Positions 14,778 through 52,447 of a stretch of DNA of 64,000 nt are shown here, piece by piece. The DNA is from a virus (Duplodnaviria > Caudoviricetes). The stretch covers positions 1-64,000 of IMG/VR virus record IMGVR_UViG_3300033070_001349. The stretch is one strand, 5' to 3'. The position numbers and the translations under genes are program-made. The notes under the pieces were generated by a model. That model was not told where the DNA came from. It saw only the letters and a program-made list of their open reading frames with translations, and did no database searches. Numbering within the stretch: position 1 is the first letter of the stretch; each line of letters opens with the position of its first letter.

Positions 14778-17700
14778 GTGCCCCGCCGCCCCCTCCACGA
14801 GATATTCGACCGAGCCGCCCGGTCCCTCTGGCTATCGACGGAGCCGGACGCCGAGACCTTCCTCCACGAGCTCGCCCACTGGATCGAGCGTGGCCGGGCC
14901 TGGAGGGACCTCTACGGCAAGAGCTGGGGGTGGCTGCTCTGGGCCAACAGCAAGGCCCTCCGAGCCCTGCGCAACTGCGAGGACATCGACCTCCGCGGGG
15001 ACGCGACGACCGTGGGGATGGTCCGACTCTACCGGATCGAGGTCCGGGTCCTGGCGGTGGTCCGGCCGGCCTTCCGAACGATCGACCTCCGCGGCCCCGT
15101 CCGGGTCCTCCGTCGGAACTTCAAGGACGAGTACGGCCTCGCGGGGGTCCTCCTCGGGGAGTCGGTCGAGCGGGACATCACGGCCGCCGCCAAGACCGCC
15201 ACGTCCAAGCGCCTTGCGGCCAAGCTCCGCCGCCTCGTCCTGAAGGCGGGCGCGTGAGCGCCGAGGCGGTCAAAAAGGCGCTACTCGGCGCCATCGAGGG
15301 ATGGCCCGACACCCCCGATCGGCCCTGGTTCACGCACCCCTGGCGCGGTCGGATCGACGCGGTGTTGCAGGCCCTCTCCGACTACCCCGGGGAGAACACC
15401 CGCACCCTGATCGAGGCCTTCGCGACCCGGGGCCTGTGGCCGGAGGAGTGGGTCGAGTTCGTAACCTCGGACGCCAGGGACCAGCGCAACCTCGCGCTCG
15501 GGCGCGAGAGCCCCCTTCGGTTCACGAAGTCCGACCTCGGGCCCTACCACCGGGAGCCGTGCTTCGCCGGATGGTGCAGTTGGTGCGACGGCTGGCCCTA
15601 CCCCCCGGACCCGGTCCACCTCGCGATCCTGGCCTGCCGCGGGGTAGAGGCCCTCCGCACCCTCCCCGTCCTCGCCCGCGAGTCCCTCAAGGTCGATCGG
15701 GTGATCCTCCGGCCCTGGACGCCCGCGAGGAAAGAGAACCTCGGGCTCGCTGCCGACCCGGCCGAGAGGCACCTCCGCGAGGCTGGGTGGTTGTCCCGCC
15801 GTGTGGTCGATCGGACCATCGGCCCCCCGGTTCGGACCCTCACCAATTCCCCCTTTCGTACCTACCGCCGCGTCATCATCCTCTTCCCCAACCCCCGAGA
15901 CCCCAACCCCGTGAGCACCCCATGAGCGAAAAGCACCCGGACGCGAGCCCCTTCTCGCCCCGCCACGCGATCCTCGACAAGATCGTGCAGGCCCTCCTTT
16001 ACAACACCGACGCCTACGAGCTCCTCATGGGCAGGGTGTGGGAGACCTGGACCGACGAGCAACGGAAGGAGATTGCCGACCGGGCCTACACCCTGGCCCT
16101 CGCGCGGCTCGACGTGGTCGTCCCTCACTCGATCCGCACGCTCGGCGCCGGGTCGGCGAAGGGCCAGATCAACCTCTTCGCCGACCACGTCAAGGCGTCC
16201 ATCCGCCGGGCCTTCGACGATCGGAAGGTCGAGGGGTCCATCCGCGAGCTCGTGACCTCCCACCTCGACGAGACCCTCTCCTCGCTCCGCGAGACGGTCA
16301 CGAAGACCGCCGGGGACCGGGCCCGCGAGATCCTCGTCCAGGTCGCCGACCGCATCGACGCGCAGACCGCCAGGAGCCTCATCCGGGACGCCCTCCTCGG
16401 GGAGAAGGGGCGGGGCTAGGCCGTGACCAACTACGAGGAGATGAAGGCGATCCGCGAGAAGGTCCGAGCCGCGCTCGGGGCCGCTGGGTTCCGCGAGTGC
16501 TCGGTGGGGCGCCACGGTGGGGGTCGTGCGAGATACCGCGACGAGGAGGGTTTTCGGATCATGGAATCCATCTACTCCCCCGACGCCTTCGTGAAGCCTG
16601 TCGGCCACGCAGTGGTCGGGGTGTCCTGCCGGGGGGATAGGAAGAGCGAGTTGCGGCGCTACCTCGCCGCCCTGGCGAAGGTCGGGTTCGAGGCGTACCT
16701 GTGCGGTCACGGCGGGCGGAAGACCCCGGCCGTGTGGATCAAGGCGGCTTCGTGAGGGGCGCGCAGTACGACCGCTTCGTAGCCGTCCGCGACCGGGTTC
16801 GAGCCGTGCTCGACGCTGCGGGGCACACCGAGCACGGACCCGACAGCCCCAACGGCTACAAGGTCCTGTGGGCCCTCGTCCCGCCCAAAGGCTTCCCCGT
16901 GACCGAGGGAGAGCCCATCGTGTCGATCGGGTCGCCTGACGAGTCCCTCCTCGCCGGGTACCTCGCGACCCTCCGGGCGGCGGGCTTCACCGCCGAAATC
17001 GCCAGAACCCGCGTACAAGACGCCTCGGCCGTGTGGATCCACCGGGTACTCGCGAACCCCACGGGAGTATCTCCGACGCCATGAAGAAGAAGCGGCCCCA
17101 GCCCATGTGCTTCTACGTGACCCAGTTCGAGGCCGTGTGGCGGCTCACCGAGAACGCCCTCCGCCGCATCCTGAAAGCGGGCGCGGCCGGAGGTCCCTCG
17201 ATCGGGGGGGAGGGCGTGACCCGGCTCCGCGTGAGGCTCTCCGCCGCCGGGTTCAGGCGGCGGGAGGGCGGGCCCCCCAAGAGCTGGCGGCGGAGGCACA
17301 TCGTCCTCCTCCAGCCCCTCGACCAGCCCCCGGAGTGGTTCCGCTCCATGCTCGCGGCCCTCGACCGCCAGGACTTCGACGAGATGCGCGGCTTCATCGG
17401 AGTGGAGCCGTAGCCGTGGCGTTCGTCGTGTCACTCGGAGAGGGGACCATGCGTCGTCTGTCCGCCATCGCGCGGAAGTTCAACCTCCTCGACCGGGACC
17501 GAGGCCCCCAGGTCACGTTTCGCGATGGCACCCGCGACGGCCGGGCCCGGATCGATTACGCCGCCATGGCCCAGCTCGCGGTCCTGTTCGCCCTCAACCA
17601 CCGCGAGGACTTCGAGCGCTTCGTGGCCGCCAACACGTCCCAGGGCCCCAAGGGGCCCGAGAAGCCGGGGGAGTGACCCGTGGCCCTTTACAACCTCCAC

Positions 17701-43509: not shown

Positions 43510-43543
43510 TCTCCGGGCCCTCGGGGTGATACACCCGGCGCCC

Positions 43544-44203
43544 ATGACCCCTGAGCGCAAGTCCATCATCCTCAAGACCGGCCTCGGCCTCGCCGCCCTC
43601 CTCGTCCTGACCCTCGTCGGGGCCTTCGTCGGCAAGCGCTTCTTCACCCCGAACCAACACAACCCCGCCAAGCACGGCACCGTCCAGGTCCGGCTCGGGC
43701 CCGGGTGGACCGCGGCGGAGCGCGCAACGATCCTCTCTGAGTTCCCGATGCTCGAACGCCTCGGCCCGCGGTTCGAGTGGGCCCCGGACGGCGACCTGAG
43801 CGCCCCCTCTCCCCCCGGCCCGGTCCGCGGGATCATCCGCCACGTCGTGGTCTACCGCGGCGACTGGGGGCCCGCCGGGTGCCGCTCGCGCGGGTTCGGC
43901 GCGGGCTACTACGACACGGTCGCCTACACGGTGTGGGTCGACCCGGTCTGCGCCCCCGGCGAGGCCCTCGCAGCGGTCTTCGCTCACGAGGTCGGCCACG
44001 CCCTCGGCATGGGCCACGTCTGCCGGTCGGCCGGGGACACGACCCCCGACGCCCGGTGCTCCCCGGTGGGCTACGACCCGCACTCCGTGATGAACCCGGG
44101 TATGCCCGAGGCCAGCGGCCTCGACCTGTCGGTGCCCCCGCTCGCGCCGAGCTACAAGGACCTCGAAGAGTTCAACCGCGTGATGCTCATTCGACCCGAG
44201 TGA
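43544..44203 (+). CDS. membrane-anchored metzincin (matrixin-like) Zn metalloprotease
   Basis: N-terminal TM helix; HEVGHALGMGH; Met-turn SVMNP. Confidence 0.85.
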   Translation: MTPERKSIILKTGLGLAALLVLTLVGAFVGKRFFTPNQHNPAKHGTVQVRLGPGWTAAERATILSEFPMLERLGPRFEWAPDGDLSAPSPPGPVRGIIRHVVVYRGDWGPAGCRSRGFGAGYYDTVAYTVWVDPVCAPGEALAAVFAHEVGHALGMGHVCRSAGDTTPDARCSPVGYDPHSVMNPGMPEASGLDLSVPPLAPSYKDLEEFNRVMLIRPE

Positions 44204-45623: not shown

Positions 45624-45655
45624 CCGTCCGTCCTCGCGCCGTGGTACTCCGGGCC

Positions 45656-46462
45656 ATGGGCTACACCAACCTCGCCACCGGCACCGGCCTCGTGATCGAC
45701 GGCTCCAGGGTCAACGTCCCCGGGGTCAACGTCCTCAACTTCTCCGACGCCCCCGAGCTCGCCATGAGCGACGCGGACGGCGAGACGCGCCTCCCGACCG
45801 AGGCGATCCACCTCCTCGTCCTCCACACCACGACGGGCCGGATGCCCCAGCGCCTCCAGCCTGGGAAGGGCCCCGCCGGGGACCTCGCCGAGCGCAACGC
45901 CCGGTCGTGGTCGGGCTCCGCCCGGGTCGCCTCCGCTCACCTCATCGTCGACCTCGACGGTCAGGTCGTCCAGATCGCCGACCTCGCGAAGAAGATCACC
46001 TACCACGCGGGGCACAAGGCGGTGAACCACCACTCCATCGGGGTCGAAATCGCCATCACTGGCGACGGGAAGCTCTACGAGGGCCAGATGGATGCCCTCA
46101 TGGCCGTGGTGAACCTCCTCACCCGGCACCCGCGCTTCAACCTCGTCAGGACGTACGCGAAGGGCTCCTGGCCGATGGCGGGCATCGCCGACTTCCGCGG
46201 GGTCATCTCGCACCGCGACGTGGGCAACCGCGGCGAGGGGGACTGCGGCCCGGTCCCCTACCAGTACCTCGACCGGCACAACTACACCCCCCTCGCCTTC
46301 CCCGGCCCGGCCCAGGCGAGCTTCTGGAAGGACGTGCAGGCCAAGATGAACACCATGCGGCCCGGCAAGCCCGCCCTCTCCGTGGACGGCATCCCCGGCC
46401 GGATGACCTTCGACGCCCTCCGCGAGCTCCGCGCGGCCGGGTACGGCGCCGAGCTCCCGTAG
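45656..46462 (+). CDS. N-acetylmuramoyl-L-alanine amidase (endolysin-like) with a C-terminal PG-binding motif
   Basis: LVLHTT, SAHLIVDLDG, YHAG, NHHSIGVEI, SHRDV, DC; LSVDGIPGRMT. Confidence 0.85.
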   Translation: MGYTNLATGTGLVIDGSRVNVPGVNVLNFSDAPELAMSDADGETRLPTEAIHLLVLHTTTGRMPQRLQPGKGPAGDLAERNARSWSGSARVASAHLIVDLDGQVVQIADLAKKITYHAGHKAVNHHSIGVEIAITGDGKLYEGQMDALMAVVNLLTRHPRFNLVRTYAKGSWPMAGIADFRGVISHRDVGNRGEGDCGPVPYQYLDRHNYTPLAFPGPAQASFWKDVQAKMNTMRPGKPALSVDGIPGRMTFDALRELRAAGYGAELP

Positions 46463-46506
46463 CACTCGCCTTGCGGTAATTCCGGCCCCCGGTGTAGGGT
46501 AGTCGC

Positions 46507-46821
46507 GTGAACCGCCGCACCCTGGCCGAGATGATGAACCTCTCCGAGGCGACCCCCCTCACCTTCCTCTCCCCGCTCCCCGGGCAGACCACGGCCAAGC
46601 CCCGGGCGAAGGTCCAGCGCAAGTTCGAGGAGGTCCGCGACGCCCTCTCCAAGGCCCAGGTCGCGGTCGAGAAGCTCACGGGCTTCCTCGTCCCGAACGA
46701 GCTCTCGGAGGAGGATATCCAGCGGGCCCTCGACGCCCTCAAGGACCTCGACGACGCCGGGAGCTCGCTCACGTCGGCGGGCGCCGCCCTGACGAAGGCA
46801 GTGGAGGGGTGCAAGCCGTGA
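46507..46821 (+). CDS. leader-bearing protein 1 (candidate internal virion protein)
   Basis: N-terminus MNRRTLAEMMNLSE. Confidence 0.6.
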   Translation: MNRRTLAEMMNLSEATPLTFLSPLPGQTTAKPRAKVQRKFEEVRDALSKAQVAVEKLTGFLVPNELSEEDIQRALDALKDLDDAGSSLTSAGAALTKAVEGCKP

Positions 46822-47186
46822 ATCACGGGACCCTGACGGAGATGATGCGGCTGGCGGAGACCTACGCCACGTCCCCGATCGCGCCGATCCCGACCCTCGG
46901 GGTGCGGGGGCTCACCGGGGAGGCCAACCCCAACGTCGCCCCCTCGACCCACCGCTCGAACCCCGCGCTCGACCAGGAGATCCTGAAGGCAGTCGAGATG
47001 CTCGAACGGGCCATGAAGTCGGCGCGGGCCAACCTCGGGCACATCTTCAACCAGATGCGCGACCACCAGGACAAGAACCCCACGCACGACCGGCTCCAGA
47101 TGCTCCTCGTGGTGATTCAACAGACCTACGAGACGTGCCAGTCGGTCGAGGAGCTCGCCCGCACTGACCTCCGCAACCCCCGCTGA
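46818..47186 (+). CDS. leader-bearing protein 2
   Basis: N-terminus MNHGTLTEMMRLAE. Confidence 0.6.
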   Translation: MNHGTLTEMMRLAETYATSPIAPIPTLGVRGLTGEANPNVAPSTHRSNPALDQEILKAVEMLERAMKSARANLGHIFNQMRDHQDKNPTHDRLQMLLVVIQQTYETCQSVEELARTDLRNPR

Positions 47187-47206
47187 CCAGGGACGAGACC
47201 GTGCCA

Positions 47207-47860
47207 ATGGACCGACGGATGCTCTACGAGATGCAGGTGCTCGCCGGGGTGCGCTCCCAGGAGATGGGGGCCCGGCCCGACCTCGGCCGGGGGGTCCTCT
47301 CCGAGGAGTCCGAAGCCGCCTACCGCATGTCCTACCCGGGCTACGCCGCCCTCTCCGTGCTGACCCGGGCGGTCTTCGACCTCCACGGCATCCTCGCCCA
47401 GATGAAGGCCGAGCTCGACTCCTTCGTCTTCTCGGACGGGGAGTACGCGAAGCGCGCCGCGGCCATGCGCGACGGCCCGGTCGCGTCCCTCCACGAGCTC
47501 GTCCTGAAGCTCGGGTACGCGATCGACAACGACTTCACGACCGGCTGGCGCTACCGCCGGGTCAAGGGCTCCGACGACGAGATGCCCACGGCCGGGCGGA
47601 TGCCCGTTCTCGTCCTCCACGCCTTCGGCGAGCTCGCCGAGGTGGCCGCTATCGGCCAGCGGGTCAAGCCCAAGCTCGCCCGGATGCGGGAGGACAGCCG
47701 CCGGGAGTCCCTCGGGGGCGGGAGCCTGGACGGCCCCTCCCTGGCGGCCATCACCAAGGCCTTCGACGCCCTGACCGACAAGGGCGAGAACCTCCTCGAA
47801 CGCATCTCCAAGGGCGTCGAGGACTTCGCCGCCGAGATCGCCCGCAACGACGCCCGCTGA
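47207..47860 (+). CDS. leader-bearing protein 3
   Basis: MDRRMLYEMQVLAG...VLSEE. Confidence 0.6.
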   Translation: MDRRMLYEMQVLAGVRSQEMGARPDLGRGVLSEESEAAYRMSYPGYAALSVLTRAVFDLHGILAQMKAELDSFVFSDGEYAKRAAAMRDGPVASLHELVLKLGYAIDNDFTTGWRYRRVKGSDDEMPTAGRMPVLVLHAFGELAEVAAIGQRVKPKLARMREDSRRESLGGGSLDGPSLAAITKAFDALTDKGENLLERISKGVEDFAAEIARNDAR

Positions 47861-47881
47861 TTCAGGAGAGACCGCCACACC

Positions 47882-48730
47882 ATGGACGCCCGAACCCTCA
47901 CCGAGATGGCGGCCCTCGCCGACCGCCGGTACATCCCCCCGAACATCGCCCGGCGGATCCTCTCCGAGGAGGGCGGCATGGGGGCGGCCGAGCCCACCGT
48001 CGACCACCACCTGAGCCACGCCCACCACCACGCGACGGCCGCACTCACGGCCTCGCGCCTCGGGGACGCCGACGCGGCCCAGAAGCACTCCGCGGCGGCC
48101 AACAAGCACCTCCTGTCCGCCGCCCAGAAGCAGCGGGCCGAGGACCACCCGAGCGCCCACGGCCCGGACGAGAAGATGGTCTTCGGGGTGTGGCGCAAGA
48201 CGGGCAAGGAGCACTCCCCCGCCGAGCACCACGCCATCGGGGACAAGTACGCCCGGCACGCCCACCGGCAGAAGCAGCGGATCGACACCCGCGCGATGCT
48301 CTCCGGGGTGCACCCCTCCGAGGTCCCCGACCACGAGAAGGACCACCACTACCGCGAGGTCAAGCAGGCCCTCTCCCTCGCGAAGACCCACTACGCCGGG
48401 CAGGACCCGATGAAGCACCCGGGGATCGCCAAGCACCCCCACAAGCAGGGCGCGGCCGGGGCCAAGCCCGAGGTCCAGGGGTCGGTCGCCGACTCCCGCG
48501 TCCCCCTCGGGAACCCGGTGGGCGAGGGCGACCGGCCGCTCCCCCTCCTCCCGACCTCGCGCCACAACCCCGCCCACCAGGGCCTCCAGAACATCGACCC
48601 GCACCCCTACCTGCACAGCAAGCACCCGGACGCCAAGCCCGGGGCGACGACGCAGATCAAGGGGCACAACTACGTCAAGGGCCAGAACGGGAAGTGGCGG
48701 TACACGCACCGCACGCCCATCACCCCCTGA
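47882..48730 (+). CDS. leader-bearing His/Lys-rich protein 4
   Basis: MDARTLTEMAALAD...ILSEE; EKMVFGVWRK. Confidence 0.65.
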   Translation: MDARTLTEMAALADRRYIPPNIARRILSEEGGMGAAEPTVDHHLSHAHHHATAALTASRLGDADAAQKHSAAANKHLLSAAQKQRAEDHPSAHGPDEKMVFGVWRKTGKEHSPAEHHAIGDKYARHAHRQKQRIDTRAMLSGVHPSEVPDHEKDHHYREVKQALSLAKTHYAGQDPMKHPGIAKHPHKQGAAGAKPEVQGSVADSRVPLGNPVGEGDRPLPLLPTSRHNPAHQGLQNIDPHPYLHSKHPDAKPGATTQIKGHNYVKGQNGKWRYTHRTPITP

Positions 48731-48753
48731 GCACCCCCCGAGGAGCCCGACCG

Positions 48754-49536
48754 ATGCCCCTGCCCCTTCACGAGATGCGCACCCTCCTCCGGCTCGCTAC
48801 CACCCCGGCCCACGTCCTGGCCGAGGAGGGGGAGGGAGACCACGAGGGCGAAAAGATGGTCTTCGGGACGTGGCGGCCGGTAGATCCGAACGCCACGCCT
48901 GAGGCTCTTCACGCGCACGCGGACCACCACAAGGCCCACCGCGACAAGCACTTCGCCGCTTCTACCGCGGCCATGAAAGCAGCGTCCGTCGCCAAGTCCA
49001 AGGGGGACCACGAGACCGCTGCCAAGCACCTTCAGGTCGGGTTCGAGCACCAGAAGCAGGGCGAGGCCCACCAAGACGTGCAACTGGCCCTCCGCGCGGC
49101 GGCCTTCGGTCACGGCAAGGCCTCCGACATCGTGGTCCCCAAGGACGATGCCGAAGCGTCGAAGCACTACCACAACCGCGCGGTGAAGACCCTCTACGCA
49201 CGAGCGAAGAAGGCCGGGTCGCCTATCACTGCCGACGTGGCGAAGATCGGGTGGAGCGAGCACAAGTCCCCTGCGGCGAACCACCAGATGACGGACAAGT
49301 GGCAACACACCCCCGGGTGGGGCGAAGCGCAACCGGCCCTTCACGGGCACGGCGGCGACACCCGGGGTCCCGACGACGTGCCGATCCACAGCGTCACGAA
49401 GAAGTCCCCCCTCGGCCCCTCGATGACCCTGACGGCGTACGGCGGGAAGGACCCGGCGAAGCCCAAGAAGGTGAGCGCGGGCATCAAGCTCCACCTCCCC
49501 AAACACCCGGGCGGGGGATGGCCCCCGAAGAAGTAG
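48754..49536 (+). CDS. leader-bearing His/Lys-rich protein 5
   Basis: MPLPLHEMRTLL...VLAEE; HEGEKMVFGTWR; GAGGAG SD. Confidence 0.65.
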   Translation: MPLPLHEMRTLLRLATTPAHVLAEEGEGDHEGEKMVFGTWRPVDPNATPEALHAHADHHKAHRDKHFAASTAAMKAASVAKSKGDHETAAKHLQVGFEHQKQGEAHQDVQLALRAAAFGHGKASDIVVPKDDAEASKHYHNRAVKTLYARAKKAGSPITADVAKIGWSEHKSPAANHQMTDKWQHTPGWGEAQPALHGHGGDTRGPDDVPIHSVTKKSPLGPSMTLTAYGGKDPAKPKKVSAGIKLHLPKHPGGGWPPKK

Positions 49537-49544
49537 CCCCGGCC

Positions 49545-50540
49545 GTGTGGTCCCCCCGCGCCCTCCTCGCCGAGCGGTCCAGCCCGAAGGGTACGAGCTC
49601 GTGGGCGGCCGTCGTCCTCGCCCTCGACGGCCCCTCCCGGTCCGCCCTGGCGATCGAGGACGGCCTCCCCTCTAAGGAGCTCCACTGCACCCTCACCGTC
49701 CACGGCAAGGTCGACGAGCTCGGGCCCGACGCCTTCGAGAAGCTCAAGCGAGCGGTCGAGGGGTGGGCCGGGGGTCGGGCCCCCTTCGAGGCCCAGGTCG
49801 GAGGGATCGGGCGCTTCGCTGGGGACGACGAGGGCGGGGACCCGGTCTACCTCCCGGTCGACTGCGCACGGCTCACTCGGGAGCGTCCTGACCTCCTCAA
49901 GGCCCTGGCGAAGGAGGGCGTGAAGGCCCGCGAGGACCACGGCTTCAACGCCCACATCACCCTGGCCTACATCGACCCCGAGGACGACCTCCCGGTGCAG
50001 CGCATCGACAAGCGCACCCTGACCTTCGGCCGCGTCGAGGTCTGGTACGGCGGGAAGCGGGCAGGGTACAATCTCTCGAAGGAAGCACAGGAGCACGTTC
50101 GCATGGATGCCAGGACGCTACGGGCCCTCTCGGAGATCGCCTCCACCCCCACGGAGAGGCTCGCGCAGCGCCTCCGCGAGGCCGAGGAGCCTTCGGGCGG
50201 CCACGAGGGGGAGAAGATGGTCTTCGGGACGTGGCGCAAGCTCGGGCCCGACGCCGCCGGGAAGAAGCCCGGGGAGCCGGGCTACAAGGGGCCCACGCAG
50301 AACCAGCGCCGCCACGGCGCCGAGCTCAACAAGCACGGCGACGCCGAGAAGGACTGGACCGTGTGGGGCCCCCACCCCACGGCCAGGGGAAAGTGGAACT
50401 ACCTCGGGACGCACAAGGGCACCTACGCCTCCGCCCTGACCAAGTACGCCGACGACCCGGGCTTCCACACGAGCGGGAAGAAGAACTACCAGGGCGTCAT
50501 CAAGCCGTCGAGCGACCACACCCGGGTCAAGATCCAGTAG
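49545..50540 (+). CDS. 2H-phosphoesterase (Acb1/LigT-like) fused in frame to leader-bearing module 6 (internal ATG 50103)
   Basis: LHCTL and AHITLAY motifs; internal SD plus MDARTLRALSE; HEGEKMVFGTWRK. Confidence 0.8.
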   Translation: MWSPRALLAERSSPKGTSSWAAVVLALDGPSRSALAIEDGLPSKELHCTLTVHGKVDELGPDAFEKLKRAVEGWAGGRAPFEAQVGGIGRFAGDDEGGDPVYLPVDCARLTRERPDLLKALAKEGVKAREDHGFNAHITLAYIDPEDDLPVQRIDKRTLTFGRVEVWYGGKRAGYNLSKEAQEHVRMDARTLRALSEIASTPTERLAQRLREAEEPSGGHEGEKMVFGTWRKLGPDAAGKKPGEPGYKGPTQNQRRHGAELNKHGDAEKDWTVWGPHPTARGKWNYLGTHKGTYASALTKYADDPGFHTSGKKNYQGVIKPSSDHTRVKIQ

Positions 50541-50562
50541 AAAACAATTCGACTGGCGGCCC

Positions 50563-50590
50563 TTGACGGGTCCGATCTAGGTGCTAGATT
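50563..50590 (+). promoter_or_regulatory. class-I promoter
   Basis: ATTCGAC-N9-TTGACG-N16-TAGATT. Confidence 0.8.
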
Positions 50591-50613
50591 GTGAAGCACA
50601 GGAGATCGAGACC

Positions 50614-51228
50614 ATGAACACCGCCGCCGCCACCGCCAACGTCCCCGCCGAGACCACCCCCGTCACCACCACCATCGCCCCCTGGACGGCGCCCGAGTCC
50701 TCGGACCCGGCGTACCTCCACGGCCTCGCCGACGCCCACCGCGCGAGCCGCGACGCCCTCCGCACGGTCGCCAACGACTGCATGACCCAGGCGGTCGGCC
50801 AGCTCAAGGCCGGGGACGCCGACGCCGCGCAGGCCCTCTTCGACGCGGGCTTCCACGCCCAGGCCCTCTCGGAGGCCCACGACGACGTGCGCGCGGGCTT
50901 CCGCGGCGCCGCGCAGATCAACGACGGCAAGGCCGCCGTGAAGATCGTGGTCCCGACCTCGGACGAGGTCGCGGCGGCCACCTACCACAACCGCGCGCTC
51001 AAGTTCTGGCGCCGCCGGGCCCACATCAGCCAGCACACCTGGATCCTCCTCCGCCCCTTCACCATGGCGGTCGAGTTCTCCGCGACCCGCCCCTCGTGGG
51101 CCAACCGCGGCCTCGCCCAGGACGGGTCGTCCGCGAGCCTCGCCGCCAAGTTCGGGTCCCCCGTCGCCCTCGACGAGGGGGAGGACGAGGGGGACGACGC
51201 GGCCGAGGTGCAGGGCGAGCAGATCTGA
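50614..51228 (+). CDS. paralog of 48754-49536 lacking the N-terminal peptide leader
   Basis: Aligns over ~100 aa (LH..AD.H...GD...GF..Q...EAH.DV...IVVP..D.....YHNRA.K). Confidence 0.7.
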   Translation: MNTAAATANVPAETTPVTTTIAPWTAPESSDPAYLHGLADAHRASRDALRTVANDCMTQAVGQLKAGDADAAQALFDAGFHAQALSEAHDDVRAGFRGAAQINDGKAAVKIVVPTSDEVAAATYHNRALKFWRRRAHISQHTWILLRPFTMAVEFSATRPSWANRGLAQDGSSASLAAKFGSPVALDEGEDEGDDAAEVQGEQI

Positions 51229-51280
51229 GCGAAGGGGAGGGGCCTTGCCCGCCGGGGCCGGGCCCTTCTACTCTCCCTCG

Positions 51281-51775
51281 GTGCGCTCCATCCTGATCCT
51301 CGCCCTCCTCGCCGGGTGCGCCTCGACGCAGACCCCGCGGCTCCTCCCTCCGCCCTCTGCACCCGAGACCCGCGACCTCCCGCCCGACCCCGCCGAGGAG
51401 CCCCTCCCCGACGGCATCCCGGCGGGGGAGACGGTCGAGCCCCTCGAAGCCGGGTCCTGTTACGACGCCACCGGGCTCCGCGGCGGGAACTACCCGTGTC
51501 CCCGGGCCTCCGGGCTCCTCGCCTCCGAGGGGTGGGCGGTCCGGGCGGGCTTCTACCGGCTGCGCTACCGCGAGCTCCGCGAGCACTACGAGGCCGACCG
51601 CTCCGTGTGGCGGGCGCACCGGGTGCTCTACGAGTCGACCCACGCGGAGAACCTCCGCCGCATGGAGGCCGCGAGGCCCTCGTGGCTCGTGCGCAACGCC
51701 TTCCCCATCGGCCTCGGCGCCGGGCTCATCCTCGGAGGGGTTGCGGCCACGTCGGTCGCCGCCGCGTTGCGCTAA
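51281..51775 (+). CDS. lipoprotein with a C-terminal TM helix (u-spanin topology)
   Basis: MRSILILALLAG-C lipobox; C-terminal PIGLGAGLILGGVAATSVAAAL. Confidence 0.6.
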   Translation: MRSILILALLAGCASTQTPRLLPPPSAPETRDLPPDPAEEPLPDGIPAGETVEPLEAGSCYDATGLRGGNYPCPRASGLLASEGWAVRAGFYRLRYRELREHYEADRSVWRAHRVLYESTHAENLRRMEAARPSWLVRNAFPIGLGAGLILGGVAATSVAAALR

Positions 51776-51802: not shown

Positions 51803-52447
51803 ATGGGTTCCCGGGACTTCAACCCCGCGCTTCAGGCCGCACACCTCCGACAGATCCCCCTCGCCGAAGACGACGGGGGCCGCGTGCTCCTCCACGTCGG
51901 CCGCATTCGCGACTGGGAGACCCCGACGCGGGACCGCTACTCCGAGCCACATGGCTCCGAGCTCGCGCGGGTCAACGCCGCCCCGGAGGAGCCCCCACCC
52001 GCCGAGCGACCCCTCTCGTACGTCGCCAACGACCCCCCGGACCCGCGCACCCTCGACCGGGCCAGGGCCTTCCGCGTGACGCTCTCGCAGGAGTTCGGTC
52101 AGGACGACCAGGACGCCTTCCTCCGCGACCCCCGAGCCTCGGTCCCCCTGCGACAGGTCCGCCGCCTGATCCAAGAGATGGATCACGTCTCCCGGAGCGC
52201 GCAGGAGCGGCTCACTGGCCTGCGGCTCCAGGCGGCCCACCTCCTGAACCAGTGCTCGCGTACCCCGACCGGACGGGAGGCGATCCGCCAGCGCCTCCCC
52301 CGGCTCTTCGAGCTCCTCGCGGCGGTCGAGCAGCCCCACGGGCTCGCGGACCAGATGGAGATGGCCCTGACCGAGTTCGACGAGTCCGGGATCGGGGATG
52401 ACGAGCCGCAGGCGGCGGCTCACCCCATGAGCTTCGGCCTCTTCTAG
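51803..52447 (+). CDS. hypothetical protein
   Basis: Preceded by GTGTAGAGT-N6-ATG; IPLAE near the N-terminus. Confidence 0.55.
   Translation: MGSRDFNPALQAAHLRQIPLAEDDGGRVLLHVGRIRDWETPTRDRYSEPHGSELARVNAAPEEPPPAERPLSYVANDPPDPRTLDRARAFRVTLSQEFGQDDQDAFLRDPRASVPLRQVRRLIQEMDHVSRSAQERLTGLRLQAAHLLNQCSRTPTGREAIRQRLPRLFELLAAVEQPHGLADQMEMALTEFDESGIGDDEPQAAAHPMSFGLF
51943..51958. repeat. 16-bp palindrome, copy 12 (in CDS)
   Basis: CGAGCCA-CA-TGGCTCC. Confidence 0.85.

Follow-up and report, generated by a model that had tools for sequence, protein, structure and literature searches.

Six consecutive sites in one gene block (positions 46507 to 50540) of an uncultured T4-like phage encode a common peptide leader with the consensus M-[DN]-x-R-T-L-x-E-M-x-x-L-[AS]-x. 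Judged by its sequence, this leader is real and specific, and it is probably a lineage-specific capsid-targeting propeptide of the T4 type, carried by internal or ejected proteins. The window analyzed here (64,000 nucleotides) is the first 64 kb of the 148,482-bp IMG/VR virus record IMGVR_UViG_3300033070_001349, which has a G+C content of 70.7%, a CheckV completeness of 78%, and nearly all of its genes on the + strand. Positions outside the window are given as genome positions.

A common leader on the products of one gene block

The block directly follows an amidase gene and is followed by a leaderless paralog of one of its members. The genes are as follows (isoelectric points are given as pI).

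45641 to 46462, + strand: N-acetylmuramoyl-L-alanine amidase, likely endolysin, leaderless (PF01510, E 9.7e-14; PHROG endolysin/amidase families)
46507 to 46821, + strand: gene A, 104 amino acids, pI 5.5; GTG start; short leader MNRRTLAEMMNLSE (46507 to 46548) with LAE and LSE
46818 to 47186, + strand: gene B, 122 amino acids, pI 6.5; GTG start overlapping the stop of A as GTGA; short leader MNHGTLTEMMRLAE (46818 to 46859)
47207 to 47860, + strand: gene C, 217 amino acids, pI 5.7, ORFan; long leader (47207 to 47308) with MDRRMLYEMQVLAG, a Pro-containing spacer, and VLSEE
47882 to 48730, + strand: gene D, 282 amino acids, pI 9.6, 30 His and 20 Lys; leader (47882 to 47971) MDARTLTEMAALAD..IPP..RRILSEE, then a Gly-rich linker and the motif EKMVFGVWRK
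48754 to 49536, + strand: gene E, 260 amino acids, pI 9.4; leader (48754 to 48828) MPLPLHEMRTLLRL..TP..VLAEE, then EGEKMVFGTWR
49518 to 50540, + strand: gene F, 340 amino acids from the ATG at 49518 (database gene call) or 331 from the GTG at 49545
50103 to 50189, + strand: internal leader in F, in frame, MDARTLRALSE..TP..LREAEE, before the F' body
50614 to 51228, + strand: gene G, 204 amino acids, pI 5.1 (database entry P0003); leaderless paralog of the helical domain of E, with an acidic tail

The original prediction had placed the open reading frames and N termini at 46507, 46818, 47207, 47882, 48754, and 50103 as we find them. It had counted seven leaders, six of which were confirmed by a hidden Markov model (HMM); the seventh, MWSPRALLAE at 49545, does not score, and the gene call there starts nine codons earlier, at 49518. 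The leader at 50103 is present as well, but it lies inside the reading frame of F, with no stop before it, and not at the start of a separate gene. The same prediction had set the leader against random N termini. When the HMM was run on the six-frame translation of all 148 kb, exactly six sites were returned (10 to 18.5 bits), with the next match at 4 bits. In leave-one-out runs, A, B, C, and D were each recovered as the top match outside the training set (A at rank 1, E 0.048; B at rank 1; D at rank 1, E 0.0036). E and F' are counted as members because they match each other over 46 residues (52% identity, E 4e-10) and because the start of F', MDARTL, is identical to that of D.

The leader is conserved as protein and not as DNA: the same residues are written in differing codons, the invariant Leu by CTG, CTC, CTT, and CTA and the Arg likewise in four ways, and the DNA upstream of the genes shows no relation. 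This codon-level control was prompted by a relative (G004; 200 kb, 51% G+C) in which shared "N termini" are a DNA element before the start codon. There, at about 52 to 74 kb (L060 to L069), at least eight genes have, directly before their MSN start, a conserved element translating as ..EILSxLRCLLxM, which is probably a promoter or a 5' leader element. In the block, database gene calls agree on the starts of C, D, and E, and the GTG starts of A and B are credible because the residues before the first in-frame ATG match C and D as amino acids.

No other gene in the window carries the leader, as had been claimed; outside the window, however, one gene does.

Genome 91982 to 92308 (L071:1983-2309): g91982, zinc-ribbon protein, 108 amino acids, with an F'-type long leader beginning MSANDRTLLALSERALRPTDRALVLLSESPSGG

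The leaders of g91982 and F' are reciprocal best matches in the genome (E 0.09 each), and g91982 is also the best match (E 0.028) of the leader of P0007, a D-like protein from our library searches (see below). Thus, six of the seven leader copies stand at predicted N termini, and the remaining one, at 50103, stands in frame inside F. The frame of the 2H phosphoesterase that forms the N-terminal module of F runs into the F' leader without a stop, and an identical 151-nucleotide contig from another study covers this joint (50016 to 50166). An AGGAG located 9 nucleotides before 50103 could allow a nested start of F'.

Two further candidates, at 14778 (MPRRPLHEIF...) and at 51803 (protein H, ..RQIPLAEDDGG), scored within chance and were dropped. 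Protein H (51803 to 52447; 214 amino acids) contains 26 Arg and no Lys, shares the promoter motif of A, and has an N-terminal stretch, RQIPLAEDDGG, that recalls the RRILSEEGG of D, although it gives no score with the leader profiles.

The leaders, 14 to 34 residues long, come in two forms. The short form (A and B) has 14 residues and ends in L-S-E or L-A-E. C, D, E, F', g91982, and P0007 have the long form, of 25 to 34 residues, in which the same first helix is followed by a spacer that in every case includes Pro, by L-[SA]-E-(E/S/G), and by a Gly-rich linker. Positions 6, 9, and 12 of the first helix are hydrophobic. Such a peptide might be taken for the recognition tag of a modifying or exporting enzyme, as in the leader of a ribosomally synthesized and posttranslationally modified peptide or in a secretion signal. 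Upon inspection, however, the leader sequences show no hydrophobic core, twin-arginine motif, or lipobox, and no candidate modifying enzyme adjoins the block. Radical-SAM family PF04055 was not found in the 148 kb of this 78%-complete record, whereas it was detected in 14 of 14 control genomes. We consider a recognition tag of this kind very improbable.

Cut-site motifs and the T4-type head module

In T4, the prohead protease gp21 cuts after the Glu of L/I-x-E (PMC9026906, PMC5694885). The capsid-targeting sequences (CTS) on T4's internal proteins are N-terminal propeptides of 10 to 20 residues ending in the cut motif (PMC9026906, PMC3012670, PMC5694885), in which targeting is set by the N-terminal residues and processing by the last three (PMC9026906). 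The original prediction had proposed looking for a gp21-like protease in the present phage; one was found outside the window, about 70 kb from the leader block, with homologs of gp20 and gp23 arranged in T4 gene order.

Genome 115599 to 118385 (L002:1835-4621): portal, T4 gp20 family (PF07230), the gene being split by an intein with HNH and HTH domains (PF14890, PF13392)
Genome 118433 and 119139: two nonconserved head-module proteins, between portal and protease
Genome 120346 to 121704: Peptidase_S77 (gp21-type) prohead protease, 452 amino acids (PF03420, E 6e-15)
Genome 121741 to 123249: Gp23-family major capsid protein (PF07068)

A profile built from the protease and 24 relatives matches the T4 gp21 structure (5JBL, E 2.5e-18), and the catalytic columns His77 and Ser132/133 are invariant in 25 relatives. 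The C-terminal half of the protein, about 250 residues, helical, and Glu rich, looks like a fused scaffold-like domain. This arrangement is found clade-wide, with a scaffold-like helical domain of 250 to 350 residues and total lengths of 489 to 667 residues in the clade relatives (loci L003 to L056). In three distant relatives (L048, L050/L051, and L053), the protease has 201 to 229 residues, which is about the T4 size.

Each of the seven leaders contains exactly two [L/I/M]-x-E motifs in its first 36 residues, that is, 14 in 252 residues compared to a background of 1.06% (P 7e-7). Of the eight L[SA]EE sequences in the predicted proteome of 45,637 residues, genes A, C, D, and E account for four (odds ratio 52, P 8e-6); gene A also has ELSEE at residues 65 to 69. 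Two or more [LIM]xE in the first 36 residues are present in 10 of 180 nonleader proteins. Three of the four head-module proteins, namely, the capsid protein, the protease, and the product of 118433, are among these 10 (hypergeometric P 5e-4), as is a 3,585-residue protein. The protease has LIE at residues 10 to 12, where T4 gp21 has LIE-9. When the capsid protein is aligned to T4 gp23, the only Glu in the region of the Glu65 cut is the pair in M-N-E-E-T, and the site reads [LM]-x-E-E-T in 31 relatives; the L-[SA]-E-E of the leaders resembles this predicted maturation site. Within the scaffold-like half of the protease, [LIM]xE is enriched 3-fold (P 0.006), matching the fate of T4 gp22, which is cut into small pieces. 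By this pattern, the leaders show the signature expected for cutting by the T4-type head protease that the phage itself encodes, and their cleavage is predicted.

Observed are the leader with its motifs and the head genes of T4 type, including that of the protease; from these, we infer binding, cutting, packaging, and injection in the following way. The amphipathic first helix, through its hydrophobic positions 6, 9, and 12, would dock the protein on the scaffolding core during prohead assembly. The gp21-type protease would then cut after the Glu of L-x-E, at residues 12 to 14 in the short form (A and B) and at L-[SA]-E-E, past the Pro-containing spacer, in the long form (C, D, E, F', and g91982). 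The mature proteins would remain in the head with the DNA and exit with it at infection. The cargo would comprise the small acidic ORFans A to C, the basic His/Lys-rich proteins D, E, and F' made of shuffled modules, the 2H phosphoesterase joined to F' via the internal leader, and the zinc-ribbon protein encoded elsewhere; the internal leader of F may act as a cleavable joint. In an AlphaFold2 model of E, built from an alignment with G and its homolog P0002, residues 1 to 38 have a predicted local distance difference test (pLDDT) value below 50, with a short helix at residues 5 to 13, and are followed by a helical core (residues 41 to 185, pLDDT 85 to 94) and a disordered Lys-rich tail. A helix on a disordered linker before a confidently predicted domain fits a removable propeptide. 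The predicted complex of the protease-scaffold protein with residues 1 to 60 of D scored 0.00 in a run without controls and gives no verdict.

The protease and motif evidence would equally fit proteins that are cut by the protease but act in assembly, as prohead core or DNA-condensing components like T4 gp67, gp68, and IPIII, and that are then degraded or retained instead of being injected. The basic, His/Lys-rich, and partly disordered nature of D, E, and F' is what would be expected of a DNA-associated filler, and T4 IPIII mutants have head assembly defects (PMC9026906). However, the block lies far from the head module and includes a 2H phosphoesterase enzyme, and this ORFan set is missing from relatives with the same head genes, so that it cannot be essential for assembly. 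We therefore regard a role limited to assembly as improbable.

The reading that we favor, that of a T4-type capsid-targeting propeptide, can be compared in detail with the CTS itself. In the T4 record (AF158101), ipII and ipIII begin with MKTYQEFIAE|A and ipI begins with MKTFKEFTSTTTPVSTITE|A. Both phages thus have a short form (10 residues in IPII and IPIII, 14 in A and B) and a long form with a Pro spacer (19 residues in IPI, 25 to 34 here). In both, a short N-terminal peptide, with an amphipathic core and then L/I-x-E, is found on otherwise diverse, nonessential proteins, several of which are basic. The resemblance to MKTYQEFIAE and MKTFKEF...ITE is at the level of the pattern Phi-x-E-Phi...Phi-x-E|A/T only, 10 to 14 residues being too few for statistics. 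The leader here is longer, always has two cut motifs with L-[SA]-E-E as the second, and in one case stands between two modules within the same reading frame. In addition, the protease is fused to a scaffold-like domain, and packaging, seen in T4, is predicted here.

CTS-like leaders on variable proteins were already expected for the T4 family (PMC9026906). The original prediction spoke of a new capsid-targeting signal, but the type of signal is not new: it would represent a form of the T4 CTS principle specific to this lineage (PMC9026906, PMC3012670). What is new is the leader sequence, the two-site design, the internal copy as a possible joint to an enzyme, and the cargo. Inner-body and ejection propeptides are also known from phiKZ, 201phi2-1, and SPN3US, where gp21-like proteases cut at S/A/G-x-E or A-x-E, and SPN3US gp53 and gp54 share the N terminus MANFVKSKLARESVE on diverged bodies (PMC5694885). 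Common to those phages and the present one are a diverged gp21 homolog cutting after Glu (predicted here) and several cut sites per propeptide. Their propeptides, however, are mostly longer than 100 residues, on recognizable paralogous cargo, whereas the leaders here have 14 to 34 residues, A to E have no Pfam or PHROG match, and the head genes are closer to those of T4 proper.

The gene neighborhood gives a weak hint in the same direction. In T4, ipIII and ipII come directly after the lysozyme gene e and nudE, and ipI lies after 57B and before the tRNA island; the present block comes directly after the amidase and includes a 2H enzyme, a NUDIX gene lies 6 kb upstream of it, and a tRNA/small-RNA island follows 5 kb downstream. 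The T4 57B product (Acb1) is itself a 2H enzyme (PF23474, E 2.7e-60) adjoining ipI, reminiscent of F within the block, but F does not match the Acb1 family (PF23474) at E 0.1. We know of no report of Acb1 packaging in T4. T4 gp57B (AF158101, L070 15953-16411) begins with MMEFKDFST, reminiscent of the CTS of the neighboring ipI, MKTFKEFTST.

Cargo proteins, paralogs, and relatives

The enzyme module of F has both H-x-T motifs of the 2H phosphoesterases (HCTLT and HITLA) and matches PF13563 (E 2e-9, 38 bits) and PF02834 (E 4e-8, 33.7 bits), both above the cutoff. Among solved structures, its best sequence match is a bacterial RNA 2',3'-cyclic phosphodiesterase (a weak match, E 0.22); an AlphaFold2 model of F from the single sequence reached a pLDDT of 37 and was unusable. 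The F' body is basic (pI 9.7) and contains EGEKMVFGTWRK. An ESM model of C had a pLDDT of 0.51, and ESM Atlas searches with E and C returned models of low confidence and no neighbors that could be used. The E model, when compared with PDB and BFVD using Foldseek, matched nothing below E 0.07, and the matches were generic helical bundles only.

The bodies behind the leaders had been described as dissimilar and the cargo as unrelated. This is true of A, B, and C, among which no body similarity was detectable. In contrast, D, E, and F' have EKMVFG(T/V)WR in common, and the core of E matches G (39% identity over 108 residues, E 1.6e-15), so that part of the cargo (D, E, and F') belongs, with G, to a family of paralogs. 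While E has the leader and a basic tail, G lacks a leader, ends in an acidic tail, and is served by an early promoter of its own. Such a contrast would be expected of one copy carried in the head and another produced after infection, and it is reminiscent of T4, in which Alt is packaged and ModA and ModB are expressed early, as paralogs with and without a capsid address. The comparison does not extend to function, as the domain shared by E and G has no fold match and no ADP-ribosyltransferase is involved.

We searched two protein libraries derived from about 15 billion predicted proteins, one of 5.8 billion clusters at 90% identity and one of 1.84 billion representatives at 50%. The only outside relatives across the two were P0007, which is D-like (63% identity), and P0002, which is G-like; gene C had none in the 5.8 billion clusters at 90% identity. 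P0002 is a homolog of G in another phage and is also leaderless. P0007 carries an F'-like insert and a variant leader, MHAQQFRTLLQLSES, which has kept from the D leader the hydrophobic residues at positions 6, 9, and 12, the paired Pro residues, and R-x-LSE-GG. Between D and P0007, the leader is about one-third identical and the body 63 to 74%, whereas within the genome, leaders on nonhomologous bodies are more alike than those of D and P0007. Drift between orthologs together with likeness within one genome fits a removable peptide coevolving with one phage-specific receptor.

No match to P0002 was obtained in viral and JGI (Joint Genome Institute) metagenome contigs. Searches of 50,697 phage records by megablast, blastn, and tblastn and a related-locus search with C and E as queries also returned nothing. 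Of four sequencing runs, one is probably the source sample, and the other three cover small parts of the stretch only. Two wastewater data sets from other studies, a DNA library and a metatranscriptome, contain short contigs identical to parts of the block (46400 to 51300), so the phage recurs in wastewater samples; the contigs from the RNA library cover parts of the block only and say nothing on the timing or level of transcription. We also looked for the amidase, F, g91982, and the leader profile in five large relatives (60 to 65% capsid identity) and found one amidase homolog, with no leader genes after it. Since these five relatives have neither the leader nor the block, the leader set is accessory, like the variable internal-protein loci of T4.

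These relationships admit another explanation, namely, that a fast-evolving, tandemly duplicated gene family has the leader as its best-conserved N-terminal module, an oligomerization or partner-binding helix that works in the infected cell and is unrelated to the capsid, with L-x-E as a by-product of an amphipathic, Glu/Leu-rich helix in a high-GC proteome. The modules shared by D, E, F', and G and the F'-like insert in the D-like P0007 indicate that the family evolves by duplication and recombination. In addition, all six block copies are adjacent, A to C could be paralogs diverged past detection, g91982 belongs to a recombination module, and the relatives lack a leader system. However, such a module leaves unexplained the two cut motifs per leader, the 52-fold enrichment of L[SA]EE, and the same N-terminal signature on head proteins. 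Moreover, G retains the domain yet is leaderless, and the leader drifts more than the body between orthologs, yet is similar on nonhomologous bodies within the genome. We think that a family module without a link to the capsid is possible but clearly the less probable explanation.

Several observations weigh against a capsid-targeting propeptide. With D, E, F', and G being paralogs, common descent may account for some of the similarity at the N termini, and in leave-one-out runs the 14-residue leader model alone missed E and F'. One leader copy is not N-terminal unless the nested start in F is used, and g91982 is placed among recombination genes, flanked by a RecA-like gene and a RuvC gene. 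The acidic A, B, and C differ from the T4 internal proteins, which are basic. Since 14% of all predicted proteins have [LI]xE within their first 16 residues, a lone motif means little. The absence of leader and block from the five large relatives belongs here as well. As for expression, the T4 late promoter TATAAATA was not found anywhere in the genome, and the motif of the candidate block promoter (see below) also precedes a thymidine kinase gene.

If the leader is nevertheless a capsid-targeting propeptide, T4 capsid targeting would reach a very distant, 71%-GC, uncultured T4-like branch from wastewater, with a new address peptide in two forms and two cut sites each. Seven ORFan proteins, including an enzyme, would then be candidate injected host-takeover or antidefense factors. 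Leader likeness within the genome, set against drift between orthologs, would offer a handle on the coevolution of address and receptor; nothing established is overturned. We speculate further, and with considerable doubt, that the capsid is preloaded with a changeable kit including a 2H polyprotein whose internal leader is both address and cut joint. An RNA-end or cyclic-nucleotide phosphodiesterase would in that case be present in the cell from the very onset of infection, and leaderless copies such as G would be made afterwards.

Promoters and neighboring genes

Two promoter-like elements bound the block.

46463 to 46506, + strand, intergenic: candidate block promoter TTGCGG-N18-TAGGGT within the GTGTAGGGT motif, 6 nucleotides before the GTG of A
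50563 to 50590, + strand: early-type promoter TTGACG-N16-TAGATT, which marks the end of the block and drives G

The early-type promoter, TTGACN-N16-19-(ATGCGC)TAGATT, is present in 27 copies from 0.6 to 89 kb (window 603 to 63523 and on to genome 88983). Leaderless mRNAs are suggested by the many copies that end 6 nucleotides before a start codon. Between 44205 and 50563 there are none, in agreement with the original prediction that the block holds no class-I promoter. The GTGTAGGGT motif before A is a candidate block promoter, possibly also giving a leaderless mRNA. Five copies of GTGTAGNNT are found on the + strand (window 2375, 46492, 51788, and 53454; genome 96889) and none on the - strand. 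Four of them stand 6 to 10 nucleotides before predicted starts (2392, 46507, 51803, and 96908) and the fifth 59 nucleotides before 53522; this motif may represent a second promoter class. TAGCGT-type motifs similar to GTGTAGGGT precede 96908, 118433, and 138868, and related TAGCGT and GTGATA motifs precede the late-region genes 118433, 138868, 108170, and 137275.

Two further genes lie on either side of the block. The one at 43526 to 44203, immediately upstream of the amidase operon, encodes a zincin-like HExxH protein that has a membrane helix at its N terminus; the one at 51245 to 51775, after G, encodes a lipoprotein-like protein (LLAGC) that has a membrane helix at its C terminus. Both could have roles in lysis or exclusion.

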